A stretch of DNA of 64,000 nt, from assembly GCF_964213995.1 (NCBI RefSeq), contig NC_135801.1:124372001-124436000 (forward strand). The letters run 5' to 3'. The stretch is from Mustelus asterias (Eukaryota). Shown piece by piece: positions 1 to 25,126 of the stretch. The notes under the pieces were generated by a model, which saw only the letters and a list, made by a program, of their open reading frames with translations, was not told the origin of the DNA and searched no databases. Position 1 is the first letter of the stretch. Each line of letters opens with the position of its first letter. A program made the translations under genes and the position numbers.

Positions 1-1022
1 GAATTGAGAATCAGAAAACAACCAGAAATATGAAAAATTCTGATCATACCGGAAGCAAGGTTTAATCCAACACATGCGTGCCATAATATAATTTATCTTT
101 TCACAAGACACAAGAAATAGGAGGATGACTTAAATCATACAGCCCAACAAGCCCGTCCCACCATCCAAAACAACCATGGCTAATCTTGGGCTTCAACTCC
201 ACTTCTCAATCTTCTTCCCATTTCCCTCGATTCACTGAGAAACAAAAATCTGTCTATCTCAGCTTTAAATGCGATGAATGATGAAGCTTACACAAACCAA
301 TGGATACAGAATTGCAAAGATTCACAACCATGTGACTGAAGAAATTTCTCCTCATCTCAGACCTAAATATTCGCCCCTTTGCCATGAGAATGTGCCCTAT
401 GTTCAAGATTGCCCAGACAGCAGAACAGCACTTCTTTCCCCATCTGCACTGACATTCCACCCATACCAAACACATGACTCAGTATCGATTCCTCATCGCA
501 ATCCATCCTCCATTTCTCACTCTTTGTTCCACTGAACAAAATATTGTTTCACAGGCCTCCTCATGGCAAAAGCACACTGTACTGTTGATGTTTCCTATTT
601 GCACAATATGTAGACAAGGAAATAATATGAACCACATATCCTCATTTGCAACCTGAACAATGACACCAGATTACTGGAATATATCCGGGTGCATTTTTCT
701 GCTTTTGTCATTGCACCGAGAGACAGGTGCAACGCACAAGGGAAAAGGGAACCAAAGGAGTAACATTGGTCTTGTTTGGAAATGTGAAACGGCAGCCTGT
801 TTGACAACATGCTTCACTTTCTTTAACATTGAAATCAATAGAAACATTGTTGGCACAATGAAAATTGCTTTCACCCTGACCATATAAACAATGCAATTCT
901 TTTTACATATAAATAAAAGGCAATATAGAGAGAGATTGTTAATAAAATGACTTTCACAGAAATAATATGAACATCCTAAAACAAAAACTTAACGGGGTTG
1001 GCATCTCATCCTTCTCACTTAC

Positions 1023-1129
1023 AGCTTTGTGTCCTGCACCCTTTCAGGGAATATCCTGACACAACGTTGGGTAAATCATTTTTAACAGTCGGTTCCCCTG
1101 ACGCGGTCATCTTCAAATAACAATAAAAT
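1023..1129 (-). CDS. Apple A3, second half
   Basis: Third copy, splice sites intact. Confidence 0.92.
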
Positions 1130-4100
1130 CTGAAAGAAAACAAAAGGTAGAAGATAGTTAATGTGAAGTTTTGGAATGTAAAGTTAGTGCAGGATAGTTA
1201 AATCTGTGCTGCTGCTTTGGGAAAACATTGAGATTGGTTTTGTGGAGGGATGAGGTCAAAAGGTTATTCCTCATCCAAATCCATCTAATTCAATCCATTG
1301 GTTTGGAAACCACTTGGTCAAATCGCAGGGTAGAGGTTGGGATTTGATCACCAGTTATCTACAGAATGTCTAATCCCGGTCAAAATGTGTTTCTGTTGGT
1401 TGGAGTCATAACCTTGCAGTGATGAGGTGGAAATGATTCTTCATTCATTTTCAATCCAGAAATAGAGTATCACAGGGAAGGAGGTTGTTGCCCTGACCTG
1501 GGTTATCATAATCTCACCAAAGTTTATGAGCACTGCATTTAGATCTTCAAGGGACTGAATCCAAACATTGATTTTTACACTTTGGTTTTGTTCAATGATA
1601 CCTTGTTTACAATACATGTACTTTTTAACCAAATGCTCAAATTTAATTCACAGACCACAAACATTCCTCTGCTGATAACCTCATTCAGAATATCTGTTTA
1701 ATGGTTTAATGGCAACAAATTGTACTGGCATGATTTAGATTTTAATAGCATCAGGACAACAACAACAATCAATGATTGAGGGAATAGAAGAATGTTTGTT
1801 TACTGGACCATTGTGAGGAACTGCTCCAATTCCAATCAGAATGTCTCTTTCAGGATGGGATTTGCCTTGGACTAAACCTGATATAATCACTCCATATTCC
1901 AATTAAACGTCTGAATGAAGCAGTTACAGATTTACCTTCGGTTGTCGGTGTTCCAATCTCTTGTTAAAAAAGTGAAAAATTGACATTGGCTCTTCTCGGT
2001 ACACACTTTTTGACAGTAATTGGCGTCTGGAGCAAGGACCGATTCAATGTCATTTCCAGGAAAATCGATGTTTGATACCAGACCACATACACATCCTGCA
2101 ATAAAACACTTTTGTATCAATAATCTATTTGTCAGAAATGTTTATTAAAGGAGGTTAGGGTGGCTCCAATTCATCCCACTTCTATGTTCATACCCCATAG
2201 CACCGCAAACCTTTCCTTTCCAAGTATCCATCCATTCTGTTGTGAAATTCATTCTTGAATCCACTTCCTCCAAATTGTTAGGCTTTGCGATTCAGGTTGC
2301 AACATTTCACTGCATCATTTGTTTTACTCATGATTCCTCAGGTTCTTTTTACCAATCAGCAGAAATCTATGCCCTGTGGTTACCATCCCTTCTGCCAATG
2401 GACACATCAAAACCATTTCAGCTCCCGCTCACACACAGACACGCAACACATCTCCCCACCTTCTCCCAGGAGAAAAGAATTGCATTCAACTACAATTACG
2501 AAATGTGAAACCAGAAAAGAAATCAAAATGAACTTGCAAAGCAGTTAAATAATGGATCTTATATCTCATTTCAACTTCTCTGCCCCTCCCCATATTACTG
2601 ATCCTGTGACAGACCTAATATCGATCAATCTCCGACATGAATATAATCAATGATGGAGCGTCCACAACTCGATGAGGAAGAGAATTCCAAAAATTCACAA
2701 TTCTAGTTTCCGGGCCAGGAGAATCTTCCTCTGCTCCACTCACATTGTTGTTGGATGTTGACCACCAGAATCATTCAACACCTCCACTCGCTAACATAAA
2801 TAACGGCCAGAAATTATTGTGTGTGCTGTAGTTTCGTCCTCGTGAATTTCATTTAACAAATGTGTAAATTTATTTATAAGCAGTAATTTACACGCATTAC
2901 ACAGAGAAAAAGTCTTTCTCTTTTGAAAAATATGGACATTAATTACCTTGAATGAATTTATCAATTAACTATAATTAGCAATCAATTAGCAAGAAACTAC
3001 AAAGGGTCGTGAATGAAACACAGTCCGTCACGCAAACCGGCCTCCCGTCCGTTGACTCTGTCTACACTTCCCGCTGCCTCGGAAAAATAGCCAGCATAAT
3101 TAAGGACTCCACTTACCCCGAACATACTCTCCTCCATCTTCCGTCGGGAAAACGTTACAAAAGTCTGAGGTCACATACCAACTAACTCAAGAACACTTTC
3201 TTCCCTGCTGCTGTCAAACTTTTGAATGGACCTACCTCGTATTGAGTTGATCTTATTCGACACCCTAGCTATGACTGTAACACTACATTCTGCACTCTCT
3301 CTTTTCCTTTTCCATGAACGGTATGCTTTGTCTGCATAGCACGCCACAAACAATACTTTTCACTGTTTACTAATACATATGACAATAATAAATCAAATCA
3401 AATCAAATCAAATTAGCTCCCCTATCAGGTCACACAGTATCTCCTTTACTGGAGAACTGTTGCCAGAAGCAACAAAGATGGAGGAAAGTATTCTGCTGGA
3501 AATTTGTATTGATTGTCAGCTTCTACATCAAGGTTTTATCAATCAAAAGAAAAAAAACTCATTTTGGATTTACCAGAGTTATTGTGTCCACATTCCCTTA
3601 AAGAAAATCCAGATACAACATTCTGAAGAATATTTATTCTTGGTGGAGTTCCTCTTTCACTCTTTTTGCGGTAGCAGATGTAACTAGAAAGAATCACAGA
3701 AACGAGTGGTTTTGAATTATTTACAAAATCATTAACCGTCCTCTGATTCTGCAGCTATTCCCCATTGCTGATATTGGGTGAATTTAATTCTGAGTTGGTC
3801 CTGTTCACTAAGGAGTTGTATTTATTCCTCGCAGACACCCCCTGAGTTACAATAAACATTGAGACTAAAACAATTACAGATGAAGGATTTTAGGATGCGC
3901 TCATCTATTTGAAAGACTTTATTTCCTTGTCGAAACTAAGTTACTTGAATAACTGACTCACTGCTGTTTTTGATTGTGATATTCTCCTTTTACGAAGGTG
4001 AAAAATTGACAGTCAGGTTCCTCTGTACATTTTCTTTGACAACTGTGTTCATCCTCCACAACAGACTGATGAAAGTCATTTCCCGGAAAGTCCAAACCAT

Positions 4101-7100
4101 CATAAATGCTTTTAAAACAGGCTAAAAAACATGGGAAGAGGAATTGAGAACCAGAAAACAACCAGAAATATGAAAAATTCTGATCATACCGGAAGCAAGG
4201 TTTAATCCAACACATGCGTGCCATAATATAATTTATCTTTTCACAAGAACACAAGAAATAGGAGGATGACTTAAATCATACAGCCCAACAAGCCCGTTCC
4301 ACCATCCAATACAACCATGGCTAATCTTGGGCTTCAACTCCACTTCTCAATCTTCTTCACATTTCCCTCGATTCACTGAGAAACAAAAATCTGTCTATCT
4401 CAGCTTTAAATGCGATGAATGATGAAGCTTACACAAACCAATGGATACAGAATTGCAAAGATTCACAACCATGTGACTGAAGAAATTTCTCCTCATCTCA
4501 GACCTAAATATTCGCCCCTTTGCCCTGAGAATGTGCCCTATGTTCAAGATTGCCCAGACAGCAGAACAGCACTTCTTTCCCCCTCTGCACTGACATTCCA
4601 GCCATACCAAACACATGACTCAGTATCGATTCCTCATCGCAATCCATCCTCCATTTCTCACTCTTTGTTCCACTGAACTGTGAAATATTGTTTCACAGGC
4701 CTCCTCATGGCAAAAGCACACTGTACTGTTGATGTTTCCTATTTGCACAATATGTAGACAAGGAAATAATATGAACCACATCATAGAATCATAGAAACCC
4801 TACAGTGCAGAAGGAGGCCAGTCGGCCCATCGAGTCTGCACCGACCACAATCCCACCCAGGCCCTACCCGCTAACCCCTTTTTTTTTTACCCGCTAATTT
4901 ACCCGCTAATCCCTCTAACCTACGCTTCCCAGGACTCTGAGGGGCAATTTTTAGCCTGGCCAATCAACCTAACCCGCACATCTTTGGACTGTGGGAGGAA
5001 ACCGGAGCACCCGGAGGAAACCCACGCAGACACAAGGAGAATGTGCAAACTCCACACAGACAGTGACCCGAGCCGGGAATCGAACCCGAGACCCTGGAGC
5101 TGTGAAGCAGCAGTGCTAACCACTGTGCTTCCGTGTCGCCCCATATCCTAATTTGCAACCTGGACAATGTCACCAGATTACTGGAATATATTGCACCGAG
5201 AGATAGGTGCAACACACAAGGGAAAATGGAACCAAAGGAGTAACCTTGGTCTTGTTTGGAAATGTGAAACGGCAGCCTGTTTGACAACGTGCTTCACTTT
5301 CTTTAACATTGAAATCAATAGAAACATTGTTGGCACAATGAAAATTGCTCTCACCCTGACCATATAAACAATGCAATTCTTTTTACATATAAATAAAAGG
5401 CAATATAGAGAGGGATTGTTAATAAAATGACTTTCACAGAAATAATATGAACATCCTAAAACAAAAACTTAACGGGGTTGGCAACACATTCTTCTCACTT
5501 ACAGCTTTGTGTCCTGCACCCTTTCAGGGAATATCCTGACACAACGTTGGGTAAATTATTTTTAACAGTCGGTTCCCCTGACGCGGTCATCTTCAAATAA
5601 CAATAAAATCTGAAAGAAAACAAAAGGTAGAAGATAGTTAATGTGAAGTTTTGGAATGTAAAGTCAGTGCAGGATAGTTAAATCTGTGCTGCTGCTTTGG
5701 GAAAACATTGAGATTGGTTTTGTGGAGGGATGAGGTCAAAAGGTTATTCCTCATCCAAATCCATCTAATTCAATCCATTGGTTTGGAAACCACTTGGTCA
5801 AATCGCAGGGTAGAGATTGGGATTTGATCACCAGTTATCTACAGAATGTCTAATCCCGGTCAAAATGTGTTTCTGTTGGTTGGAGTCATAACCTTGCAGT
5901 GATGAGGTGGAAATTATTCTTCATTCATTTTCAATCCAGAAATAGAGTATCACAGGGAAGGATGTTGTTGCCCTGACCTGGGTTATCATAATCTCACCAA
6001 AGTTTATGAATACTGGCATTTAGATCTTCAAGGGACTGAATCCAAACATTGATTTTTACACTTTGGTTTTGTCCAATGATACCTTGTTTACAATACATGT
6101 ACTTTTTAACCAAATGCTCAAATTTAATTCACAGACCACAAACATTCCTCTGCTGATAACCTCATTCAGAATATCTGTTTCATGGTTTAATGGCAACAAA
6201 TTGTACTGGCATGATTTAGATTTTAATAGCATCCGGACAACAACAACAATCAATGATTGAGGGAATAGAAGAATGTTTGTTTACTGGACCATTGTGAAGA
6301 ACTGCTCCAATTCCAATCAGAATGTCTCTTTCAGGATGGGATTTGCCTTGGACTAAACCTGATATAATCACTCCATATTCCAGTTAAACATCTGAATGAA
6401 GCAGTTACAGATTTACCTTCGGTTGTCAGTGTTCCAATCTCTTGTTAAAAAAGTGAAAAATTGACATTGGCTCTTCTCGGTACACACTTTTTGACAGTAA
6501 TTGGCGTCTGGAGCAAGGACCAATTCAATGTCATTTCCAGGAAAATCAATGTTTGATACCAGACCACATACACATCCTGCAATAAAACACTTTTGTATCA
6601 ATAATCTATTTGTCAGAAATGTTTATTAAAGGAGGTTAGGGTGGCTCCAATTCATCCCACTTCTATGTTCATACCCCGTAGCACCGCAAACCTTTCCTTT
6701 CCAAGTATCCATCCATTCTGTTGTGAAATTCATTCTTGAATCCACTTCCTCCAAATTGTTAGGCTTTGCGATTCAGGTTGCAACATTTCACTGCATCATT
6801 AGCTTTACTCATGATTCCTCAGGTTCTTTTTACCAATCAGCAGAAATCTATGCCCTGTGGTTACCATCCCTTCTGCCAATGGGCACATCAAAACCATTTC
6901 AGCTCCCGCTCACACACAGACACACAACACATCTCCCCACCTTCTCCCAGGAGAAAAGAATTGCATTCAACTACAATTACGAAATGTGAAACCAGAAAAG
7001 AAATCAAAATGAACTTGCAAAGCAGTTAAATAATGGATCTTATATCTCATTTCAACTTCTCTGTCCCTCCCCATATTATTGATCCTGTGACAGATCAAAT

Positions 7101-10100
7101 ATCTATCAATCTCCAACATGAATATAATCAATGATGGAGCGTCCACAACTCGATGAGGAAGAAAATTCCAAAAATTCACAATTCTAGTTTCCGGGCCAGG
7201 AGAATCTTCCTCTGCTCCACTCACAATGTTGTTGGATGTTGACCACCAGAATCATTCAACACCTCCACTCGCTAACTTAAAAAACGGCCAGAAATTATTG
7301 TGCGTGCTGTAGTTTCGTCCTCGTGAATTTCATTTAACAAATGTGTAAATTTATTTATAAGCAGTAATTTACACGCATTACACAGAGAAAAAGTCTTTCT
7401 CTTTTGAAAAATATGGACATTATTTACATTGAATGAATTTATCAATTAACTACAATTAGTAATCAATTAGCAAGAAACTACAAAGGGTCGTGAATGAAAC
7501 ACAGTCCGTCACGCAAACCGGCCTCCCGTCCGTTAACTCTGTCTACACTTCCCGCTGCCTCGGAAAAATACCCAGCATAATTAAGGACTCCACTTACCCC
7601 GAACATACTCTCCTCCACCTCCTTCCATCGGGAAAAAGTTACAAAAGTCTGAGGTCACATACCAACTAATTCAAGAACAGTTTCTTCCCTGCTGCTGTCA
7701 AACTTTTGAATGGACCTACCTCGTATTGAGTTGATCTTATTCGACACCCTAGCTATGACTGTAACACTACATTCTGCACTCTCTCTTTTCCTTTTCTATG
7801 AACAGTGTGCTTTGTCTGCATAGTGCGCCACAAATAATACTTTTCACTGTTTACTAATACATATGACAATAATAAATGAAATCAAATCAAATCAAATTAG
7901 CTCCCTATCAGGTCTCACAGTATCTCCTTTACTGGAGAACTTTTGCCAGAAGCAACAAAGATGGAGGAAAGTATTCTGCTGGAAATTTGTATTGATTGTC
8001 AGCTTCTACATCAAGGTTTTATCACTCAAAAGAAAAAAAACTCATTTTGGATTTACCAGAGTTATTGTGTCCACATTCCCTTAAAGAAAATCCAGATACA
8101 ACATTCTGAAGAATATTTATTCTTGATGGAGTTCCTCTTTCACTCTTTTTGCGGTAGCAGATGTAACTAGAAAGAATCACAGAAACGAGTGGTTTTGAAT
8201 TATTTACAAAATCATTAACCGTCCTCGGATTCTGCAGCTATTCCCCATTGCTGATATTGGGTGAATTTAATTCTGAGTTGGTCCTGTTCACTAAGGAGTT
8301 GTATTTATTCCTCGCAGACACCCCCTGAGTTACAATAAACATTGAGACTAAAACGATTACAGGTGAAGGATTTTAGGATGCGCTCATCAATTTGAAAGAC
8401 TTTATTTCCTTGTCGAAACTAAGTTACTTGAATAACTGACTCACTGCTGTTTTTGATTGTGATATTCTCCTTTTACGAAGGTGAAAAATTGACAGTCAGG
8501 TTCCTCTGTACATTTTCTTTGACAACTGTGTTCATCCTCCACAACAGACTGATGAAAGTCATTTCCCGGAAAGTCCAAACCATCATAAATGCTTTTAAAA
8601 CAGGCTAAAAAACATGGGAAGAGGAATTGAGAACCAGAAAACAACCAGAAATATGAAAAATTCCGATCATACCGGAAGCAAGGTTTAATCCAACACATGC
8701 TTGCCAAAATATAATTTATCTTTTCACAAGAACACAAGAAATAGGAGGATGACTTAAATCATACAGCCCAACAAGCCCGTTCCACCATCCAATACAACCA
8801 TGGCTAATCTTGGGCTTCAACTCCACTTCTCAATCTTCTTCCCATTTCCCTCGATTCACTGAGAAACAAAAATCTGTCTATCTCAGCTTTAAATGCAATG
8901 AATGATGAAGCTTACACAAACCAATGGATACAGAATTGCAAAGATTCACAACCATGTGACTGAAGAAATTTCTCCTCATCTCAGACCTAAATATTCGCCC
9001 CTTTGCCCTGAGAATGTGCCCTATGTTCAAGATTGCCCAGACAGCAGAACAGCACTTCTTTCCCCCTCTGCACTGACATTCCAGCCATACCAAACACATG
9101 ACTCAGTATCGATTCCTCATCGCAATCCATCCTCCATTTCTCACTCTTTGTTCCACTGAACTGTGAAATATTGTTTCACAGGCCTCCTCATGGCAAAAGC
9201 ACACTGCACTGTTGATGTTTCCTTTTTGCACAATGTGAAGACAAGGAAATAATATGAACCACATCATAGAATCATAGAAACCCTACAGTGCAGAAGGAGG
9301 CCATTCGGCCCATCGAGTCTGCACCGACCACAATCCCACCCAGGCCCTACCCGCTAATCCCTTTTTTTTTTTACCCGCTAATTTACCCGCTAATCCCTCT
9401 AACCTACGCTTCCCAGGACTCTAAGGAGCAATTTTTAACCTTGCCAATCAACCTAACCCGCACATCTTTGGACTGTGGGAGGAAACCGGAGCACCCGGAG
9501 GAAACCCACGCAGACACGAGGAGAATGTGCAAACTCCACACAGACAGTGACCCGAGCCGGGAATCGAACCCGAGACCCTGGAGCTGTGAAGCAGCAGTGC
9601 TTACCACTGTGCTTCCGTGTCGCCCCATATCCTAATTTGCAACCTGGACAATGTCACCAGATTACTGGAATATATTGCACCGAGAGATAGGTGCAACACA
9701 CAAGGGAAAATGGAACCAAAGGAGTAACCTTGGTCTTGTTTGGAAATGTTAAACGGCAGCCTGTTTGACAACGTGCTTCACTTTCTTTAACATTGAAATC
9801 AATAGAAACATTGTTGGCACAATGAAAATTGCTCTCACCCTGACCATATAAACAATGCAATTCTTTTTACATATAAATAAAAGGCAATATAGAGAGGGAT
9901 TGTTAATAAAGTGTCTTTCACAGAAATAATCTGAACATCCTAAAACAAAAACTTAACAGGGTTGGCAACACATCCTTCTCACTTACAGCTTTGTGTCCTG
10001 CACCCTTTCAGGGAATATCCTGACACAACGTTGGGTAAATCATTTTTAACAGTCGGTTCCCCTGACGCGGTCATCTTCAAATAACAATAAAATCTGAAAG

Positions 10101-13100
10101 AAAACAAAAGGTAGAAGATAGTTAATGTGAAGTTTTGGAATGTAAAGTCAGTGCAGGATAGTTAAATCTGTGCTGCTGCATTGGGAAAACATTGAGATTG
10201 GTTTTGTGGAGGGATGAGGTCAAAAGGTTATTCCTCATCCAAATCCATCTAATTCAATCCATTGGTTTGGAAACCACTTGGTCAAATCGCAGGGTAGAGG
10301 TTGGGATTTGATCACCAGTTATCTACAGAATGTCTAATCCCGGTCAAAATGTGTTTCTGTTGGTTGGAGTCATAACCTTGCAGTGATGAGGTGGAAATTA
10401 TTCTTCATTCATTTTCAATCCAGAAATAGAGTATCACAGGGAAGGATGTTGTTGCCCTGACCTGGGTTATCATAATCTCACCAAAGTTTATGAATACTGG
10501 CATTTAGATCTTCAAGGGACTGAATCCAAACATTGATTTTTACACTTTGGTTTTGTCCAATGATACCTTGTTTACAATACACGTACTTTTTAACCAAATG
10601 CTCAAATTTAATTCACAGACCACAAACATTCCTCTGCTGGTAACCTCATTCAGAATATCTGTTTAATGGTTTAATGGCAACAAATTGTACTGGCATGATT
10701 TAGATTTTAATAGCATCAGGACAACAACAACAATCAATGATTGAGGGAATAGAAGAATGTTTGTTTACTGGACCATTGTGAGGAACTGCTCCAATTCCAA
10801 TCAGAATGTCTCTTTAAGGATGGGATTTGCCTTGGACTAAACAAAGAACAAAGAACAGTACAGCACAGGAAACAGGCCCTTCGGCCCTCCAAGCCTGTGC
10901 CGCTCCTTGGTCCAACTAGACCAATCGTTTGTATCCCTCCATTCCCAGGCTGCTCATGTGACTATCCAGGTAAGTCTTAAACGATGTCAGCGTGCCTGCC
11001 TCCACCACCCTACTTGGCAGCGCATTCCAGGCCCCCACCACCCTCTGTGTAAAAAACATCCCTCTAATATCTGAGTTATACTTCGCCCCTCTCACCTTGA
11101 GCCCGTGACCCTCGTGAACGTCACTTCTGATCTGGGAAAAAGCTTCCCACCGTTCACCCAATCTCTCCCCTTCATAATCTTGTACACCTCTGTTAGATCT
11201 CCCCTCATTCTCCGTCTTTCCAGGGAGAACAAGCCCAGTTTACCCAATCTCTCCTCATAGCTAAGACCCTCTATACCAGGCAACATCCTGGTAAACTTTC
11301 TCTGCACTCTCTCTAACGCCTCCACGTCCTTCTGGTAGTGCGGCGACCAGAACTGGACGCAGTACTCCAAATGTGGCCTAACCAGCATTCTATACAGCTG
11401 CATCATCAGACTCCAGCTTTTATACTCTATACCCCGTCCTATAAAGGCAAGCATACCATATGCCTTCTTCACCACCTTCTCCACCTGTGTTGCCACCTTC
11501 AAGGATTTGTGGACTTGCACACCTAGGTCCCTCTGTGTTTCTATACTCCTGATGACTCTGCCATTTATTGTATAACTCCTCCCTACATTATTTCTTCCAA
11601 AATGCATCACTTCGCATTTATCCGGATTAAACTCCATCTGCCACCTCTCCGCCCAATTTTCCAGCCTATCTATACCCTGCTGTATTGCCCGACAATGCTC
11701 TTCGCTATCCGCAAGTCCAACCTGATATAATCACTCCATATTCCAGTTAAACATCTGAATGAAGCAGTTACAGATTTACCTTCGGTTGTCAGTGTTCCAA
11801 TCTCTTGTTAAAAAGGTGAAAAATTGACATTGGCTCTTCTCGGTACACACTTTTTGACAGTAATTGGCGTCTGGAGCAAGGACCGATTCAATGTCATTTC
11901 CAGGAAAATCGATGTTTGATACCAGATCACATACACATCCTGCAATAAAATTTGATTAATTACTTTTGTTTCAATAATCTATTTATCAATAATGTTTATT
12001 AAAGGTGCTTGGGCCCAATTAGTCCCACATAAAGTTTAAAGTGTAATTATTATTGTCACAAGTAGGCTTGCATTAACACTTCAATGAGGTTACTCTGAAC
12101 ATCCCCTCGTCGCCACAGTCCGGCACCTGTTCGGGTCAATGCACCTAACCAGGACGTCTTTCGGACTGTGGGAGGAAACTGGAGCACCCGGAGGAAACCC
12201 ATCCAGACACGGGGAGAATGTGCAAACTCCACACAGACATTGACCAAAGCCGAAACTGAACCTGAGTCCCTGGCACTGTGAGGCAGCTTTGCTAACCATT
12301 ATGCCACGCCACCAGTGTGCTACCATGCCACCCCAAGTATGTTTCCACCACACTGTCAATTCTTCCTTTTCAAATATTTGTCTAGCTCCCTTTTTTGGAG
12401 GGTATTGTGGAATCTGCTTCCACCACCCAATGCAATCCAGATCACAACTCATTGCGTTATGTTTTTCTTTCTGTGATTCTTCTGTTCCTTTACTTTAATC
12501 CACGTCCTCTGGTTTCTGATCCCTCCGTCACTGGAAACATCAACATTTCCATATTCTCCTCAACACCTTTCAAGATATTAATAAATGATAAAACAAATAC
12601 AAAAATAACAAAATTATATTCTTCAGCTTGTAACAGGATAAAGAACAGGATGAACAGAAATAAATTTATTTGCAAAAACCGGGCTACCTCGGCCTTTACC
12701 TGGTCTGGCATACATGTGACTCCAGATCCACAGCAATGTGGTTGACTCTTAAATGCCCTCTGAAATGGCCTAGGAAGCCACTCAATCATATCAAACCATT
12801 AAAAGGTTTCAAAGGAACGAAACCAGATGGACCAGGGTGAACCTAACTCGAAACGTTGGCTCTATTCTCTCTCCACAGATGCTGTCAGACCTGCTGAGAT
12901 TTTCCAGCATTTTCTGCTTTTGTTACTTATAGTAAGAAGTTTAACAACACCAGGTTAAAGTCCAACAGGTTTATTTGGTAGCAAAAGCCACACAAGCTTT
13001 CGAGGCTCTGAGCCCCTTCTTCAGGTGAGTGGGAATTCTGTTCACAAACAGAACTTATAAGACACAGACTCAATTTACATGAATAATGGTTGGAATGCGA

Positions 13101-16100
13101 ATACTTACAACTAATCCAGTCTTTAAGAAACAAAACAATGGGAGTGGAGAGAGCATCAAGACAGGCTAAAAAGATGTGTATTGTCTCCAGACAAGACAGC
13201 CAGTGAAACTCTGCAGGTCCACGCAACTGTGGGAGTTACAAATAGTGTGACATAAATTCTGATTCTAGGATCGCATGATAAAGACTCAGGAGGAAAAAAG
13301 CAGAAATATTTATGTGAAATAGTGTGACATAAACCCAATATCCCGGTTGAGGCCGTCCTTGTGTGTGCGGAACCTGGCTATCAGTTTCTGCTCCGCGACT
13401 CTGCGCTGTCGTGTGTCGCGAAGGCCGCCTTGGAGAACGCTTACCCGAATATCAGAGGCCGAATGCCCGTGACCGCTGAAGTGCTCCCCAACAGGAAGAG
13501 AACAGTCTTGCCTGGTGATTGTCGAGCGGTGTTCATTCATCCGTTGTCGCAGCGTCTGCATAGTTTCCCCAATGTACCATGCCTCGGGACATCCTTTCTT
13601 GCAGCGTATCAGGTAGACAACGTTGGCCGAGTTGCAAGAGTATGTACCGTGTACCTGGTGGATGGTGTTCTCACGTGAGATGATGGCATCTGTGTCGATG
13701 ATCCGGCACGTCTTGCAGAGGTTGCTGTGGCAGGGTTGTGTGGTGTCTTGGTCACTGTTCTCCTGAAGGCTGGGTAGTTTGCTGCGGACAATGGTCTGTT
13801 TGAGGTTGTGCGGTTGTTTGAAGGCAAGAAGTGGGGGTGTGGGGATGGCCTTGGCGAGATGTTCGTCTTCATCAATGACATGTTGAAGGCTCCGGAGGAG
13901 ATGCCGTAGCTTCTCCGCTCCGGGGAAGTACTGGACAACGAAGGGTACTCTGTCCACTGTGTCCCGTGTTTGTCTTCTGAGGAGGTCGGTGCGGTTTTTC
14001 GCTGTGGCGCGTTGGAACTGTTGATCAATGAGTCTAGCGCCATATCCTGTTCTTATGAGGGCATCTTTCAGCGTCTGGAGGTGTCTGTTGCGATCCTCCT
14101 CATCCGAGCAGATCCTGTGTATACGGAGGGCTTGTCCGTAGGGGATGGCTTCTTTAACGTGTTTAGGGTGGAAGCTGGAGAAGTGGAGCATCGTGAGGTT
14201 ATCCGTGGGCTTGCGGTACAGTGAGGTGCTGAGGTGACCGTCCTTAATGGAGATGCGCGTGTCCAAGAATGCAACCGATTCCGGAGAGTAGTCTATGGTG
14301 AGCCTGATGGTGGGATGGAACTTGTTGATGTCATCATAGAGTTGTTTCAGTGATTGTTCACCATGAGTCCAAAGGAAGAAAATGTCATCGATGTATCTAG
14401 TGTATAGCACCGGTTGAAGGTCCCGTGCGGTGAAGAAGTCTTGTTCGAACCTGTGCATGAAGATGTTGGCATATTGAGGTGCAAATTTGGTCCCCATGGC
14501 TGTTCCGTGTGTCTGGATGAAGAACTGGTTGTTGAAGGTGAAGATATTGTGGTCCAGGATGAAGCGGATGAGATGTAAAATTGCATCTGGAAACTGGCAG
14601 TTGTTGGCGCTGAGCACTGAGGCCGTTGCAGCAATGCCATCGTCATGGGGGATGCTGGTGTAGAGTGCTGAGACATCCATTGTGACGAGGAGCGCTCCTG
14701 GTTCAACTGCTCCATGTGTGCCGAGTTTCTGTAGGAAGTCCGTCGTGTCGCGACAAAAGCTGGGGGTTCTTTGTACAATGGGTTTCAGGATGCCCTCGAC
14801 ATAGCCGGAGAGGTTCTCGCACAGGGTTACTCGCACTTTGTTACTTATACCAGAGATTGTCCAAAATCCTCTGTCCAACTGTTCAAGAGCCTGCAGATCA
14901 AGACATGGATTCTGCAGTCATCAATGATCTGCCATTTGCCTCAGATATAAACCTTTGCTTGACCTTTTCCTGAAACAAACGTGCCATAATCATCATCAAA
15001 ATATTCTTTAAAAATTACAGAAACATATAGGACTGGATTTGCTGCCCACTGCTGGTTTGAAGGCACTGGTGCATGTAAAATCAAGTGAGTGGCCTGATCA
15101 TCACCTAGTGACCCCCTGTGGCATCGGGCAGCCTGCCCAACAATGAGGCTGTTGAGGCCCAATTAAAGGCTTCACTCACTGCCACTGTCACTGCTTCACC
15201 CTGAGGATGTAACCAGGTTGGGAGAGGTCCATGTTGACCAGCCAGCCCAGCAGCTGCTCACCCTTTTGAACCGCTGCAATCCATGTGGTGCAATTACACC
15301 CACATTGCTGTTAGGAAGGAAATTGAAGGGATGTAACCCAGTGAAGGAATGGTAATAATGTCCCAAGTCAGAACGTTATGTGACTTGTATGTGCTGGCCA
15401 TATCCTTCTAGGTCATGGGTTTGGAAAGTGTTGTTAAAGGAGCCTTGGGATTTCCAGCAGTGCAGCACGTAAATGGTACATACTGCTGCGACTGCATTGC
15501 TGGTGGAGAGACTGAATGTTAAAGTTGCTCAATGAAGTGTCAATCAAGTGGGTTGCTTTGTCCTGGATGTTTCCAAGCTTCTTGAGTGTTGGAACTTCAT
15601 TCATCCAGATAAGTGGAGAGTATTCCATCACTCTCCTGACTTGGGCCTTGTCGATGGTGGACAGCTACTCAATGCAGGATTCCCAGTTCTGACCTGCTCT
15701 TGTAGCCACAGTTTTATGTGGCTCGTCCAGTTCAGTATCCGGGATGTTGATCATGAGGGATTTAGCAATTGTAAAGACATTGATTGTCAAGGGAAGATGG
15801 TCTGATGTCCTCTTATTGGAGATGGTCATTCCCTAACACTTGTATGCTGCAAATGTAACTTGTCACTTATCAATACAAGCCCGGACATTTTCCAGGTCTT
15901 CCTGCGTATGGGCAGAGACTACTTTGGTATCTGAGGAGTTATGAACGCTGCTGAAAATCATGCAATCATCAGCAAACATCCCCATTTCCAACCTGATGAT
16001 GAAAGGAAGATGGTTGTGCCTGAGGAACTAATGCAGCAATGTCCAGGGATTGAGATGATTGATCTTCAACAACTACAACCATCTTCCTTTGTGCGAGGTA

Positions 16101-17788
16101 TGACTCCAATCAGAAGAGAGTTTCCTCCTTGCTTCCTTCTGATATTACTACACTCCATCAAATGCTGCCTTGATGTCAAGAACAGTCACTCTCACTTTGC
16201 CTCGAGTTCAGCTCTTTTGTCCATATTTGGACCAAGGCTGCAATGAGGTCAGAAGCTGAATGGACCTGGTGGAACCCAAACTAAACATCAGTGAGCAGGT
16301 TATTGTGGAGTGAGGGCCACTTGGTAGCACGCGCAACAACTCTTCTAATCACTTTGTTGATAATCAACTGTGAACTGATGGGACGGTAACTGACTGGGTT
16401 GAATTTATCCTGCTTTTTGTGGACGTGCATTACATGTCTTATTTTATTAAATTATTATGGGGGTTAATAGCCAAATAGTCTCTGGAAGAGCCAAGAATTC
16501 TTTGAAGTGATGGTCCTCCCAGCAACATTATCAATTATGAATGCATTAACAGAGCTAATCCTTTTATGAGTCTATGCTCTCAGCCAAGTTTCATTTTGCT
16601 TTGTTGACAAAACTGGGGAAAAGGGAATACTTTGCCCGAATAACAGCTTTATGATGCTATAATAAGTTACTTATCTGTGATTTTTTTTGCCAATAGCACA
16701 ATATTGAGTTGCGCAAGATAAAGATATGTCAAGTGCTTATAGCTTCTGTTACTGGCACTTTTATTGGGTTGCAACAGTAGCAGTGTTAAGAAAGTTATGA
16801 ATGGGTGGTTTATTAGCAGTTCGACACATGCCATTGTTACTGTAATGTTCATTGGTTATGCACAGGATGCATTTTCATGTATTTTCATGAAAGTGCCATG
16901 ACTTGACATGAAGGTTAAGAGGGGCTCTTGGGGGTGGGTGGAAGGCATGAGTTGGAACAGAACTGGCATAGGAGTGAATGGGAATTTGAGGCAATGCAAA
17001 GGGTGAGAGCTGGGAAACCTAATATATAAATATAAACAGCTGGGACAAAATCTCAGAGTACCAAGACAGCCTTTTACATAGTTCACCTCGGCACTCAGCT
17101 ACCCCGTAGCCACCTTTGATCTGTTTCCAGGGCTGGTAGGCCTGGCTCCAAACATCATCCACCTCCATTCCCTCTGCCCCACCATCTGGAGCCAAAATTA
17201 GGTCTGGTGGGGCACTTCTTACCAAGCCAGGTCTGCCGAGTCAGGAAATACCCTGACTTGAGCTACCCACCTCAGTACTGAAAACCTCTCCGATAGGATG
17301 AAATATATTTAGGACAGAGCAAGTACAATTTTTTATTTTTACTCAGAATTTTTGATGTACCACCAGAATTAGTGCTTGTCAACTTTTAAGATAAGGTTAT
17401 GCAGCTTGTTGAAGGAAAGTGAAATAAAGCACGCAGGACAAGGCCAGGCAGTGAAGGACTGAACTGCTGTTCATGTGAATCATTATGGACTGATTGGGTA
17501 GAATGGAATTCTCCATGTAATTCTATGAAATTATGATCACTAAGTATATATGTCATGCTCAGTGCCAAACCCCTACTAAAGTTTGATGGTCATCAAATTT
17601 CATGAACAGTCAAACCAGTTTCTAAAATGCTCAATGTTGAATTAATCAGTTCTGCTGTTTTATATATATATATATAGAATCTTAATACACAAAATAAAAG
17701 CAGAGAAAAGGACCTTACCATCACTATTCTGTGAAAGAAATTCAGGTATGCAGCCCACAAAGCAAACAAGATATAGAACTTTCTTCAT
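1023..17788 (-). CDS. Multi-apple (PAN) domain secreted protein, KLKB1/F11-like, 3'-partial: join(17719-17788,11780-11939,9987-10093,8445-8604,8057-8166,6417-6576,5503-5609,3962-4121,3574-3683,1936-2095,1023-1129); continues beyond left edge
   Basis: 11 exons, all GT-AG, splice into one uninterrupted frame. Apple motifs C..DFPGND..C-x3-C-x5-CQFFTF..CY(L/R)K..VSG(Y/F)SL..C. Each apple is split over two exons (160 + 107/110 bp) as in KLKB1/F11. Directly downstream of CYP4V2 on the same strand. Confidence 0.9.
1936..2095 (-). CDS. Apple A3, first half
   Basis: Third copy; inside ORF 1932..2120. Confidence 0.92.
2988..3412 (+). mobile_element. Rex1/Babar-like 3'-end fragment (duplicated with the unit at about 7471-7896)
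   Basis: Homologous to 47140-47556, same (AATCA)n tail. Confidence 0.8.
3574..3683 (-). CDS. Apple B2, second half
   Basis: Copy of 8057-8166 (TPPR instead of TPSR), splice sites intact. Confidence 0.9.
3962..4121 (-). CDS. Apple B2, first half
   Basis: Copy of 8445-8604; inside ORF 3958..4254. Confidence 0.92.
4781..5142 (-). mobile_element. tRNA-derived HE1/V-SINE-type SINE
   Basis: A/B-box head GGCACAGTGGTTAGC..GGTTCGATTCC, V-core GTGGGTTTCCTCCGGGTGCTCCGGTTTCCTCCCACAGTCCAAAGA, CR1-like tail. Confidence 0.9.
5503..5609 (-). CDS. Apple A2, second half
   Basis: Copy of 9987-10093 (KNNL instead of KNDL), splice sites intact. Confidence 0.92.
6417..6576 (-). CDS. Apple A2, first half (GCVCGL...IELVLAPD...)
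   Basis: Near-identical copy of 11780-11939; inside ORF 6413..6601. Confidence 0.92.
8057..8166 (-). CDS. Apple B1, second half: HYICYRKKSERGTPSRINILQNVVSGFSLRECGHNNS
   Basis: 110 bp, ttctag acceptor, G|GTAAAT donor, VSGFSL..C motif. Confidence 0.9.
8445..8604 (-). CDS. Apple B1, first half: SCFKSIYDGLDFPGNDFHQSVVEDEHSCQRKCTEEPDCQFFTFVKGEYHNQKQ
   Basis: 160 bp, ttttag acceptor, GTGAGT donor; inside ORF 8441..8737. Confidence 0.92.
9264..9626 (-). mobile_element. HE1/V-SINE-type SINE at the equivalent site in the neighbouring repeat unit
   Basis: Same insertion point as 4781-5142. Confidence 0.9.
9987..10093 (-). CDS. Apple A1, second half: RFYCYLKMTASGEPTVKNDLPNVVSGYSLKGCRTQS
   Basis: 107 bp, tttcag acceptor, GTAAGT donor, CYLK and VSGYSL..C motifs. 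Confidence 0.92.
10843..11718 (-). mobile_element. CR1 LINE 3' fragment present only in the first repeat unit
   Basis: ORFs ..LVRPHLEYCVQFWSP..LERVQR..; (GTTCTTT)n tail; empty site GGACTAAACCTG in the other two units. Confidence 0.92.
11780..11939 (-). CDS. Apple A1, first half: GCVCDLVSNIDFPGNDIESVLAPDANYCQKVCTEKSQCQFFTFLTRDWNTDNR
   Basis: 160 bp, ttgcag acceptor, AG|GTAAAT donor, apple Cys pattern. Confidence 0.92.
12031..12333 (-). mobile_element. V-SINE variant with a different tail
   Basis: tRNA-like head and V-core; tail shared with the fragment at about 52650-52800. Confidence 0.8.
12932..14836 (-). mobile_element. Penelope-like retroelement, 5'-truncated, in intron 1 of the apple gene
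   Basis: ORF 13310..14878 identical to the other copies from TLCENLSG onward; 13-bp TSD TTTGTTACTTATA at 12919-12931 and 14837-14849. Confidence 0.95.
15265..16430 (-). mobile_element. Old LINE (CR1/L2-like) fragment
   Basis: MEYSPLIWM..TLKKLGNIQDKA..LI; heavily decayed. Confidence 0.7.
17719..17788 (-). CDS. Apple gene first coding exon (signal peptide) MKKVLYLVCFVGCIPEFLSQNSD-G
   Basis: ATG in AGGATGA context, basic N-terminus plus short hydrophobic core, ends G|GTAAGG (phase 1), in frame with the next exon. Below the ORF-track length cutoff. Confidence 0.75.
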
Positions 17789-19737: not shown

Positions 19738-21964
19738 ACTAATGTTAATACAATCAATTCAGTGCAGATTGCACCGATACCTGGGCAGAATACATGCAGG
19801 AACCCCACGCCAGGCTAACTTTGGACCAGGGCTGCATGCTACATTGATCCAAAATAAGATTGTTGGAAATTCCTGTAAATATTGCATTAAGAATTGTGTA
19901 CTAACTATACCAACATGCCATTACAAAAAATGTAATTACCTGATTTTGGCTCATGCCAGGTCTTCATCAGATTCTAGTAAAGGAATTATTTTCTCCAGCA
20001 ATGTTTCCAGGATGCATTTATACAGTGGATAAACTTTGTGATCTGGCAAATAGACCCATTGTGCAAAATGCTTATCTTTGACCCAGGCAGTGGGATGCAT
20101 GGAACAGTATTAAACTTTAACTAGCACTTATGATGAAATATTTACAATTACCAAAGGCCTGAATGTTTGAAACTAATTTCGCTTCACAGGTTCCTGAAAA
20201 GTGAAGGTTTGAAATGCAGAGGAATTCAATCGAATTTACTCGATTTCTGTTTGCAAGGTGGTGGAACATTCAAATCAGCTGCAGCTCGAGAGGCACTGCT
20301 GAAAAATGCACTCAGTGTCAAGTGACAGCAGGAGTAGGCCGCGATGCCCACTGCAGTTGAGTGAACTGATGCCACTCTCAGTCCATGAATGATGGTCATT
20401 TAGAAAATGAGTGAAGAAAAGCAATTTGACAAAATCCTATCCCAGCATGAGCCAATGTCTTTAGAGGAGGAGGGGGAAGATATTCAGGGCTAAAATTTAA
20501 AACTGAACAAATCAATCGTGGGTACAAATGAGATAATAATGAAGAGCTCAGGCTGCTATAAATCACACAAAAGATGGCTATAATATCTTGAGCCTAAAAT
20601 TTGACCAATTTATCTGCTTTTTGCCATAAATAACCTCAGTCTTAAGCTGTGATTGGGATTTAGTCAACTTGGAATCAGAGAATCTTACAACACAGAATGA
20701 GTCCTATTGGACGACCTTGTCTGGCCAATTCTTTGAAAGAGCTTTTCAATTAGCCTTACTCCATTGCTCTTTACCCCATAGTCCTTAATTTGTTTTCTCA
20801 TATATCCAATTCAGCTTTGCAAGTTACTGTTTAGTCGGTTTCATTACCTTTTAGGTTGTGCATTCTACTAGTGCATTCAGTAATGTGTTAAAAAATATTG
20901 CCACTTCTTTGATTTCTTTGCCAATAAGCTCAAGTCTGCATCATGTGATTACCAACCCTCCTGTCACTGGAACAGATTTCTCCTTATTCTATTAAAATTC
21001 ATCAGAATTGTTAAAGCCTCTGTAAAATCTCATCTTAAATTTCCCTGCTCTAAAAGACAGCAACACAGATTTCTCTAATCCCTCTACATAACTGACATCT
21101 AAAAGGAATCATTCTGCTAAATTTCTTCAGCACCTAGACCTGGATATTCTTCGTAAAATGTTGTGGTCAGAATTGGACACAAGACCAGGTCAGTGATTTA
21201 TAGAGGTTTAGCTAAACTGTCTTGCTTCTATGTATTCAATGGGGGGAATCTTGCCAAAAAATGGCAGTGTCTCCAGTGGGAAAACTAGCATGGTTTTCTC
21301 CAGTTTCACATTGTCCGGGGGGGGGGGGGGCGGGCACTGAACACACCAGCAAAACCCAGCTGCAGTGGGATTGGGGCACCATCTTTAAGGGCCATCCCAA
21401 TAACAACAGGAATAAACTCCTCCCCAAGCCCACCATGGAGTTAAAGAAAAAAGAACAGTACAGCACAGGAAACAGGCCCTTCGGCCCTCCAAGCCTGTGC
21501 CACTCCTTGGTCCAACTCGACCAATCATTTGTATCCTTCCATTCCCAGGCTGCTCATGTGACTATCCAGGTAAGTCTTAAACGATGTCAGCGTGTCTGCC
21601 TCCACCACCCTACTTGGCAGCGCATTCCAGGCCCCCACCACCCTCTGGGTAAAAAACATCCCTCTAATATCTGAGTTATACTTTGCCCCTCTCGCCTTGA
21701 GCCCATGACCCCGCGTGATCGTCACTTCTGATCTGGGAAAAAGCTTCCCACCGTTCACCCTATCTATCCCCTTCATAATCTTGTACACCTCTATTAGATC
21801 TCCCCTCATTCTCCGTCTTTCCAGGGAGAACAAGCCCAGTTTACCCAATCTCTCCTCATAGCTAAGACCCTCCATACCAGGCAACATCCTGGTAAACATT
21901 CTCTGCACTCTCTCCAATGCCTCCACATCCTTCTGGTAGTGCGGCGACCAGAACTGGACACAAA

Positions 21965-22509: not shown

Positions 22510-24919
22510 TAAACACAGTAAGAAGTTTAACAACACCAGGTTAAAGTCCAACAGGTTTATTTGGTAGCAAAAGCCACACAAGCTTTCGAGGCTCTGAGCC
22601 CCTTCTTCAGGTGAGTGGGAATTCTGTTCACAAACAGAACTTATAAGACACAGACTCAATTTACATGAATAATGGTTGGAATGCGAATACTTACAACTAA
22701 TCCAGTCTTTAAGAAACAAAACAATGGGAGTGGAGAGAGCATCAAGACAGGCTAAAAAGATGTGTATTGTCTCCAGACAAGACAGCCAGTGAAACTCTGC
22801 AGGTCCACGCAACTGTGGGAGTTACAAATAGTGTGACATAAATTCTGATTCTAGGATCGCATGATAAAGACTCAGGAGGAAAAAAGCAGAAATATTTATG
22901 TGAAATAGTGTGACATAAACCCAATATCCCGGTTGAGGCCGTCCTTGTGTGTGCGGAACCTGGCTATCAGTTTCTGCTCCGCGACTCTGCGCTGTCGTGT
23001 GTCGCGAAGGCCGCCTTGGAGAACGCTTACCCGAATATCAGAGGCCGAATGCCCGTGACCGCTGAAGTGCTCCCCAACAGGAAGAGAACAGTCTTGCCTG
23101 GTGATTGTCGAGCGGTGTTCATTCATCCGTTGTCGCAGCGTCTGCATAGTTTCCCCAATGTACCATGCCTCGGGACATCCTTTCTTGCAGCGTATCAGGT
23201 AGACAACGTTGGCCGAGTTGCAAGAGTATGTACCGTGTACCTGGTGGATGGTGTTCTCACGTGAGATGATGGCATCTGTGTCGATGATCCGGCACGTCTT
23301 GCAGAGGTTGCTGTGGCAGGGTTGTGTGGTGTCTTGGTCACTGTTCTCCTGAAGGCTGGGTAGTTTGCTGCGGACAATGGTCTGTTTGAGGTTGTGCGGT
23401 TGTTTGAAGGCAAGAAGTGGGGGTGTGGGGATGGCCTTGGCGAGATGTTCGTCTTCATCAATGACATGTTGAAGGCTCCGGAGGAGATGCCGTAGCTTCT
23501 CCGCTCCGGGGAAGTACTGGACAACGAAGGGTACTCTGTCCACTGTGTCCCGTGTTTGTCTTCTGAGGAGGTCGGTGCGGTTTTTCGCTGTGGCGCGTTG
23601 GAACTGTTGATCAATGAGTCTAGCGCCATATCCTGTTCTTATGAGGGCATCTTTCAGCGTCTGGAGGTGTCTGTTGCGATCCTCCTCATCCGAGCAGATC
23701 CTGTGTATACGGAGGGCTTGTCCGTAGGGGATGGCTTCTTTAACGTGTTTAGGGTGGAAGCTGGAGAAGTGGAGCATCGTGAGGTTATCCGTGGGCTTGC
23801 GGTACAGTGAGGTGCTGAGGTGACCGTCCTTAATGGAGATGCGCGTGTCCAAGAATGCAACCGATTCCGGAGAGTAGTCTATGGTGAGCCTGATGGTGGG
23901 ATGGAACTTGTTGATGTCATCATAGAGTTGTTTCAGTGATTGTTCACCATGAGTCCAAAGGAAGAAAATGTCATCGATGTATCTAGTGTATAGCACCGGT
24001 TGAAGGTCCCGTGCGGTGAAGAAGTCTTGTTCGAACCTGTGCATGAAGATGTTGGCATATTGAGGTGCAAATTTGGTCCCCATGGCTGTTCCGTGTGTCT
24101 GGATGAAGAACTGGTTGTTGAAGGTGAAGATATTGTGGTCCAGGATGAAGCGGATGAGATGTAAAATTGCATCTGGAAACTGGCAGTTGTTGGCGCTGAG
24201 CACTGAGGCCGTTGCAGCAATGCCATCGTCATGGGGGATGCTGGTGTAGAGTGCTGAGACATCCATTGTGACGAGGAGCGCTCCTGGTTCAACTGCTCCA
24301 TGTGTGCCGAGTTTCTGTAGGAAGTCCGTCGTGTCGCGACAAAAGCTGGGGGTTCTTTGTACAATGGGTTTCAGGATGCCCTCGACATAGCCGGAGAGGT
24401 TCTCGCACAGGGTCCCATTGCCCGATACGATGGGACGGCCGGGTGTGTTTGCCTTGTGTATCTTCGGGAGGCAGTAGAGATCTCCAACGCGGGGAGTACG
24501 TGGGATGAGAGCACGGAGGGTGTTCTGAAGGTCCGGATCAAAGGTCTTGATCAGAGTGTTGAGTTGACGGGTGTGTTCTTTGGTCGGATCTGCAGGTAAC
24601 TGTCTGTAGTGTTCCTCGTTGTTGAGTTGTCGGTACACTTCTTTGCAGTAATCCGTTCTGTTCAGTATGACGATGGCCCCTCCTTTGTCTGCTGGTTTGA
24701 TGACAATGTTGCGGTTGGTCTTGAGAGCGTGGATGGCGTTACGTTGTGCTTGGGTGATGTTCGGGGCTGTCTTGTGAGTGCGGCTGATGAATTTGGTGTT
24801 GACGCACCTCCTGACGGCTTGGGCATACATGTCAAGTCGAGGGCAGCGGCCTTCCGGAGGAGTCCAATTCGACTCTTTCCTCTTCGGATGCACTGCGGAT
24901 CTCTCTGTCGGCTGTTCCA
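22510..24919 (-). mobile_element. Penelope-like retroelement (RT + GIY-YIG), 5'-truncated; left arm of palindrome
   Basis: ORF 22896..24893 with IKPADKGG, PGRPIVS, MDVSALYTSIP, GTAMG, RYIDD and C-terminal VVYLIRC..WYIGET..R (GIY-YIG). Confidence 0.95.
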
Positions 24920-25126
24920 GTCTCGTTGTTGAGTTGTCGGTACACTTCTTTGCAGTAATCCGTTCTGTTCAGTATGACGATGGCCCCTCCTTTGTCTGCT
25001 GGTTTGATGACAATGTTGCGGTTGGTCTTGAGAGCGTGGATGGCGTTACGTTGTGCTTGGGTGATGTTCGGGGCTGTCTTGTGAGTGCGGCTGATGAATT
25101 TGGTGTTGACGCACCTCCTGACGGCT

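Follow-up and report, generated by a model that had tools for sequence, protein, structure and literature searches.

How a block of coding exons can be multiplied within one gene, stay nearly identical from copy to copy and leave the reading frame unbroken is the question raised by a locus of the shark Mustelus asterias. The window analysed here is a stretch of 64,000 nt (NC_135801.1, 124,372,001 to 124,436,000, forward strand), one end of which holds part of a tandem array of exons encoding apple domains. Judged by its sequence, the window holds the 5' part of a shark gene of the prekallikrein/factor XI (PK/FXI) family. The elasmobranch ground plan of this gene is a signal peptide, six apples (a1 to a6) and a trypsin-type protease, in which a3-a6 and the protease correspond to the usual four-apple prekallikrein and a1-a2 are an additional N-terminal pair; in M. 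asterias, the four-exon, phase-1 a1-a2 block is multiplied to seven near-identical copies. To the full reading, i.e., a PK/FXI-family gene with an amplified array, recombination as the proposed mechanism and surface binding as the proposed function, we give a rough probability of 0.65.

Self-BLAST of the window returned a direct repeat of 632-6358 against 5139-10842 (97.6% over 5732 columns, far beyond chance), and further repeat pieces extend to base 1 and base 12013; together with the unit alignment, this places the array within the window at 1..12013 on the minus strand. Between 1023 and 11939, that strand carries ten exons in the order A-B-C-D, A-B-C-D, A-B, all ten with AG/GT ends. Unit 1 comprises exon A (160 nt; 11780..11939), exon B (107 nt; 9987..10093), exon C (160 nt; 8445..8604) and exon D (110 nt, with a phase-1 end; 8057..8166); unit 2 comprises exons A (160 nt; 6417..6576), B (107 nt; 5503..5609), C (160 nt; 3962..4121) and D (110 nt; 3574..3683); and unit 3, cut within intron B-C by the window edge, contributes exons A (160 nt; 1936..2095) and B (107 nt; 1023..1129), which brings the content of the window to 2.5 units. 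The first coding exon (70 nt; 17719..17788, minus strand), recognized by its ATG, GT donor, phase-1 end, open frame into exon A of unit 1 and agreement with the N-terminus of model XP_078074106.1 (described below), has a hydrophobic N-terminus that would act as a signal peptide, and it is the only signal exon ahead of the array within the window. Spliced together, this exon and the ten array exons give 470 codons without a stop. A tblastn search across the window found no apple exons besides the ten, and the homology of unit 1 to the other units stops about 65-75 nt upstream of its exon A.

The unit period is 4480-4484 bp; only the first A-to-A spacing is longer (5363 bp), because an insert of 879 bp sits in unit 1. 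Tandem Repeats Finder, whose period limit is 500, misses the 4.5-kb unit. Cumulative exon phases run 1-2-1-2-1, and as each unit begins and finishes in phase 1, gain or loss of a whole unit keeps the reading frame. The original prediction for this locus had described a frame-preserving unit of about 4.5 kb, in phase 1 at both ends, with exons of 160+107+160+110 = 537 nt (179 codons), and the splice sites, the measured period and the cumulative phases all agree with it; the extent it gave, 1..12050, holds for the repeat array, while the signal exon falls outside.

With regard to the identity of the gene, Pfam matched PAN_1 and PAN_4 on exons A and C (in unit 1, PAN_1 at E=2.8e-07 and E=2.4e-07, respectively), while the other two of the four exons, B and D, alone match nothing; exons A and B make up one apple domain (a1) and exons C and D another (a2), which gives two apples per unit and bears out the apple domains that had been predicted. 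A homologue search with exon A gave 8 proteins from 9 candidates, the best being M. asterias RefSeq model LOC144497169, which carries the label 'uncharacterized'; the window translation is the first 470 residues of both isoforms of this model, with 0 differences. The longer isoform (XP_078074106.1; 1885 aa), a predicted model, has 18 apples, arranged (a1-a2)x7-a3-a4-a5-a6, followed by a trypsin domain with intact motifs for His, Asp and Ser and with the activation site Arg|VFGG, which has Ala at P2. The predicted protein would have about 212 kDa before glycosylation, with 20.4 kDa and one N-glycosylation sequon per unit.

Searches with a six-apple relative from Cetorhinus (basking shark) placed prekallikrein or factor XI in the top 39 of the 60 PDB rows shown, in line with the contact-pathway-like gene that the original prediction had proposed. 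The protease of this relative alone matched PK/FXI at E of about 1e-76 versus 1e-60 for enteropeptidase, and the Mustelus protease is 72% identical to it. In a tree of apple domains (158 distinct rows from 185 domains of 19 named proteins; 84 columns), shark a5 grouped with tetrapod A3 (support 100/94) and a6 with tetrapod A4 (100/99). While members of the family are expected to have four apples only, the model has 18; since its last four apples and protease partly match the usual layout (a5 with A3, a6 with A4), we read it as a variant architecture. Structure prediction for a two-unit Scyliorhinus fragment (33-row alignment; mean predicted local distance difference test score, 64.9; predicted template modelling score, 0.37) gave PK/FXI apple domains as top fold matches, at a root-mean-square deviation of about 17 A to PK/FXI heavy chains; the model supports apple folds but is too weak to inform on unit packing, e.g., in a disc.

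Cysteine counts separate the two branches of the family. Apple domains here carry 6-8 cysteines, and the last apple carries 8, as in rat and Xenopus prekallikrein; rat factor XI has 7. The same distinction by cysteine count is drawn in PMC10499198, which gives factor XI a free Cys321 (Gly326), used in forming the dimer, and a Pro at P2. Factor XI proper is thus ruled out by a last apple with both extra cysteines and by Ala at P2. Each Mustelus a1 also has a seventh Cys (C-V-C; relatives C-V-R) in the first codons of exon A (11930-11939, 6567-6576 and 2086-2095), giving an odd cysteine count in every unit; this residue was seen in 7 of 7 a1 copies of Mustelus and in one of Scyliorhinus, all single-copy species checked lack it, and it could form inter-unit or inter-chain disulfides.

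If the assembly were over-expanded, or annotation had chained separate genes, there would be fewer true units or several genes, and a Stegostoma array split over two models as well as carpet-shark models without protease do indicate that gene models at this locus are fragile. The units of the window differ, however, in structured ways. An insert of about 879 bp, a dispersed repeat (10841..11718, approximate ends taken from the alignment gap; 95.8% match to 21443-21962), lies in intron A-B of unit 1 only, and a Pfam scan of its open reading frame gave no match; an insert of 363-364 bp, which we take to be a short interspersed element, occupies intron B-C in unit 1 (9263..9626) and unit 2 (4780..5142; approximate ends for both, from self-BLAST and unit alignments) and is absent from unit 3; and a 27-bp indel also separates units. 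Among the units, 69 substitutions were found in 3673 bp, of which 41 are transitions (16 of them at CpG), a bias that points to real mutation and not consensus error, and private sites occur in all three units (24, 9 and 28). A single signal exon precedes the array in the window, and amplification of the two-apple unit is seen in several sharks, in assemblies independent of one another. Structured inserts, mutation pattern and amplification in the assemblies of other species rule out an assembly artefact as the main explanation, and over-expansion or chaining is very improbable.

Exon copies are 98.5-98.9% identical between window units and differ at exactly 7 sites, four of them replacements (D/G, S/L, D/N and S/P) and three silent, the same count as in the original prediction. 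That introns are as similar as exons was likewise borne out, large indels apart: between units 1 and 2, 6 of 537 exon positions (1.1%) and 72 of 3943 intron positions (1.8%) are different (Fisher p=0.29). Over 4.5 kb, Mustelus units are about 2% apart in DNA; in protein, 0-4 of 179 aa separate units 1-6 from one another, and unit 7 stands apart by 9-11 aa, mostly in its last part. Divergence at an array edge is an effect expected of unequal crossing-over.

Comparison with other sharks points the same way on homogenisation. Repeated domains are nearer to a paralogue of their own species than to any domain of the nearest other genus in 14 of 14 cases in Mustelus, 12 of 12 in Scyliorhinus, 16 of 16 in Chiloscyllium punctatum and 23 of 24 in Stegostoma. 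A tree of 40 two-apple units recovered clades for Mustelus (100/97), Scyliorhinus (98/90) and Stegostoma (100/99), with Chiloscyllium weak (53/34), and forced first-unit and last-unit clades were rejected (approximately unbiased test, p=5e-05 and p=4e-04). Grouping of the units by genus and the rejection of positional orthology, both seen in the four genera tested, point to concerted evolution. In addition, of the 3 informative site pairs among the seven Mustelus units, 2 have all four combinations, a pattern that requires exchange between units or repeat mutation. Within-genus clades, paralogue proximity and four-combination pairs thus agree with the recent duplication or homogenisation that had been predicted. 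We propose that misaligned recombination between 98%-identical 4.5-kb units, through unequal crossing-over and gene conversion, would homogenise the units and alter their number with the frame unbroken. As number can change without frame loss, segregating length alleles, i.e., within-species copy-number variation (CNV), are plausible and, in our view, likely. Trees fail to separate one ancestral shark expansion, with loss in the basking shark, from two independent ones, since homogenisation erases the signal; both shark orders concerned are placed in Galeoidea.

The relatives considered are named models from 16 elasmobranch species surfaced by homologue searches and cluster look-ups, a sample and not a census, in which assembly collapse or split models may have affected some apple counts. 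At most one a1-a2 pair was found in 7 of the 16 species (Cetorhinus, Heptranchias, Leucoraja, Rhinoraja, Amblyraja, Pristis and Heterodontus), with one additional a2-like apple in one isoform for Amblyraja and Pristis and an incomplete model for Heterodontus. The pair is repeated in six species, all sharks: seven units in Mustelus (M. asterias having one model in the cluster look-up), six in Scyliorhinus torazame (one of its two records being partial), eight in C. punctatum and three in C. plagiosum; the Stegostoma array is divided over two models (7 and 17 apples), and the whale shark contributes a fragment containing two partial units. Unit number differs between the species models, which range from 1 to 8 or more, a point in favour of the original prediction. 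The remaining three species are myliobatiform rays with expansions of other kinds; Hemitrygon and Hypanus each have 23 apples, in the same order.

Several of these models have features of their own. Internal units of carpet sharks have 175 aa, not 179, and in all four carpet sharks (C. punctatum, C. plagiosum, Stegostoma and Rhincodon) the last model stops after an a2 apple, without a3-a6 or protease; no separate carpet-shark a3-a6-protease model was among the best 120 of 315 matches, and the protease half may have been lost throughout the lineage, or annotation may have split the gene. The proteases of batoids look degenerate: neither an Arg activation site nor the usual motif around Ser is found in the stingray (Hemitrygon, Hypanus) model, and Leu takes the catalytic Ser position in that of the little skate (Leucoraja). 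Rays may carry a dead protease, as apo(a) does, on a 23-apple array. Outside elasmobranchs, tetrapod apples are 34-40% alike within one protein, and in the expanded apple arrays of eels and catfishes the best internal identity of most domains is 81-100%. Catfish expansions reach 16 apples plus protease (Pangasianodon), eels have up to 18, and one caecilian model has a doubled four-apple block; these expansions are independent, although fused annotations may account for some of them.

The array could have grown by neutral runaway, simply because a block with symmetric phases recombines readily, with additional apples tolerated and no selection for avidity. The balance of four replacement to three silent differences, an exon divergence not significantly below that of introns, and the sufficiency of one unit in basking shark, sharpnose sevengill shark and skates all fit this account. 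So does the spread of the odd seventh Cys through all Mustelus copies, as an odd cysteine is usually harmful in a disulfide-rich domain. On the other hand, the frame, the splice sites and the six apple cysteines are kept in all Mustelus copies seen, and expansion of apples is seen repeatedly (in sharks, rays, eels and catfishes), a recurrence that suggests repeated benefit, although the 7 differing sites are too few for a measure of selection. We regard purely neutral growth as rather unlikely.

Size diversity might instead arise at the level of alternative splicing, through the skipping of single apples or of whole units, and not from DNA copy number. Phase-1 symmetry permits such skipping, and the RefSeq isoforms are one apple apart in Mustelus (1885 versus 1794 aa), one unit apart in C. 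punctatum (1428 versus 1253 aa) and several apples apart in Hemitrygon. These isoforms are, however, predictions, and short reads on near-identical exons could yield false skips; moreover, splicing leaves the DNA homogenisation unexplained while being itself compatible with CNV, and we think it an unlikely source of the diversity.

As to function, analogy with known apple proteins leads us to suggest tentatively, at somewhat less than even odds, that the product is a secreted zymogen, a prekallikrein-like monomer cut at Arg|Val-Phe-Gly-Gly, whose long apple array would be a high-avidity binder of repeated ligands, most likely glycans of microbes or of the host, concentrating the protease on surfaces by a route other than factor XII and high-molecular-weight kininogen (HK). 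The fourteen additional apples would raise avidity for repeated glycans or surfaces and so localise the protease there. In PMC3219417, flathead kalliklectin binds mannose and human kallikrein haemagglutinates in a fetuin-sensitive manner; catfish PK/FXI-like proteins are described as lectins in the review PMC10499198, whose Table 1 lists the whale shark without factor XII and HK.

A number of points weigh against an amplified, recombining and surface-binding array. Everything beyond base 1, i.e., the rest of unit 3, units 4-7, a3-a6 and the protease, comes from the predicted RefSeq model, and the a3/A1 and a4/A2 pairings lack firm placement in an apple tree of only 84 columns. All four combinations were seen in 0 of 3 site pairs in Scyliorhinus and 0 of 6 in C. 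punctatum. Unit-private DNA differences in Mustelus cluster (24 runs versus 35 expected; p=0.0009 raw), but the test falls to p=0.02 and p=0.22 with neighbouring sites merged at 10 and 20 nt, so that support for mosaic tracts is only weak. No sugar-binding site was identified in a1 and a2, and the main text of a shark skin-mucus proteomics study (PMC10707392) contains no kallikrein or factor XI entry. Finally, 21 of the 23 domains of Hemitrygon and Hypanus are position-matched between the two genera; with their equal counts, these stingrays indicate that apple arrays can be stable.

The stingrays also speak for the alternative that a lineage-specific duplication burst, still homogenised, is now fixed at seven units, with no polymorphism of the apo(a) kind; the inserts specific to unit 1 and the divergence of unit 7 would then mark the edges of a stabilising array. 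Units 1-6 are, however, much closer to each other than the far more diverged stingray repeats (79-95% best internal identity), and the models of two bamboo sharks of one genus have 8 and 3 units, possibly through assembly collapse. A fixed number is a genuine contender that we nevertheless consider doubtful.

Upstream of the array gene and on the same strand lies a multi-exon cytochrome P450 gene (31154..63500, minus strand; nine exon-like segments, supported by Pfam p450 in 5 of 8 segments scanned and by anchors), whose first exons fall past the window end and whose 3' end is about 13.4 kb before the ATG of the array gene. From its motifs, we take it to be CYP4V or CYP4V2, a label that PDB searches leave unconfirmed, the best matches of its segments being CYP3A/4B1 and unrelated P450s. 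CYP4V2 sits upstream of KLKB1 and F11 in the locus description of PMC3774739, and the same-strand arrangement with an upstream, putatively CYP4V, gene resembles the CYP4V2-KLKB1 position. A local duplication of 172 bp (39439-39610 and 40562-40733; 98% identical) lies within a P450 intron. Between the two genes, a retroelement with a reverse transcriptase (22510-27536) forms a 2410-bp perfect inverted pair; it is presumably Penelope-like, given its layout of reverse transcriptase and GIY-YIG, the latter below cut-off. A copy of 1897 bp (12931-14827), 100% identical, occupies the first coding intron of the array gene, and a 280-bp piece lies at 43385-43657, which suggests that the family was very recently active.

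These observations bear on the history of the family. In PMC9643190, which sampled one cartilaginous fish, and PMC3835742, the origin of prekallikrein is put in lobe-finned fish, and cartilaginous fish are scored without prekallikrein (PMC9643190; PMC10499198 Table 1). A protease-intact, probably syntenic gene in many elasmobranchs supports instead an origin at the base of jawed vertebrates, and raises the question of which ligands apples had before HK and factor XII existed; the natural range of 6 to 23 apples makes the avidity idea directly testable. Going further, the shark gene would be a true, syntenic orthologue of prekallikrein, and its N-terminal apple pair a multi-allelic coding CNV that has converged on the KIV-2 repeat of LPA (apo(a)) but sits on an active protease, with alleles giving plasma zymogens in 20-kDa steps. 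Unit number would tune glycan or surface avidity in a contact-type defence needing neither factor XII nor HK, and the free cysteine of each Mustelus unit could serve for cross-linking of the array or for its attachment to a carrier. Carpet sharks may have lost the protease while retaining the array; a survey based on the whale shark would for that reason have scored cartilaginous fish without prekallikrein. The odds are against this scenario as a whole. If the count does vary between individuals, the locus would be an independent apo(a)-like coding CNV in a plasma protease.

Among the closest known systems, KLKB1 and F11 have 4 apples, whereas the Mustelus model has 18, with seven near-identical two-apple units, and their partners factor XII and HK are among those that the whale-shark entry of PMC10499198 lists as absent. 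Apple-plus-protease (PK/FXI-like) genes of catfish and a few cartilaginous fish, reported by Tsutsui et al. 2023 as cited in PMC10499198, share the combination of apples and a serine protease in fishes and are probably the same gene lineage; the account in that review is of proteins of about 70 kDa, with no mention there of a homogenised tandem array, although Tsutsui et al. 2023 may already list shark proteins with additional apples. Literature searches, which miss most subscription papers, found no description of a homogenised apple array. Kalliklectins (4 apples in flathead FHL; 8 in the channel catfish lectin of Tsutsui 2021, cited in PMC10499198) resemble the shark gene in having apple arrays, sometimes beyond four, and the lectin hypothesis derives from them, but they are defined by apples without protease and by Ca2+-dependent mannose binding; the trypsin domain of the Mustelus model rules out membership. 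The carpet-shark models, which end without protease, may be kalliklectin-like.

The likeness to apo(a) is one of DNA anatomy. KIV-2 units of about 5550 bp (versus 4.48 kb here) are likewise multi-kb, in-frame and intragenic, with homologous introns, near-identical exons (98-100%, versus 98.5-98.9%), diverged flanking domains and, at the C-terminus, a protease domain, and about 40 alleles are proven, according to PMC7613587, which also gives the protease domain as inactivated. LPA, however, has kringles derived from a duplicate of plasminogen, one domain per unit and an inactivated protease, while the shark gene has apples, two domains per unit, an apparently intact protease and no separate parent gene seen. 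Kringle families are absent from the Pfam matches, the domains being PAN, and apples with an apparently live protease, its triad and activation motifs intact, rule out membership of the LPA family. The convergence that had been proposed stands for the anatomy of the DNA, and the intact triad and activation site and the stable 23-apple arrays of stingrays speak against a simple analogy. Within-gene homogenisation is in itself common, and concertedly evolving intragenic coding repeats are known from spidroins, DMBT1, CR1 and filaggrin. With both such repeats and the prekallikrein family already known, what appears to be new, and the particular feature here, is the host gene, i.e., a homogenised apple array in a member of the prekallikrein family.

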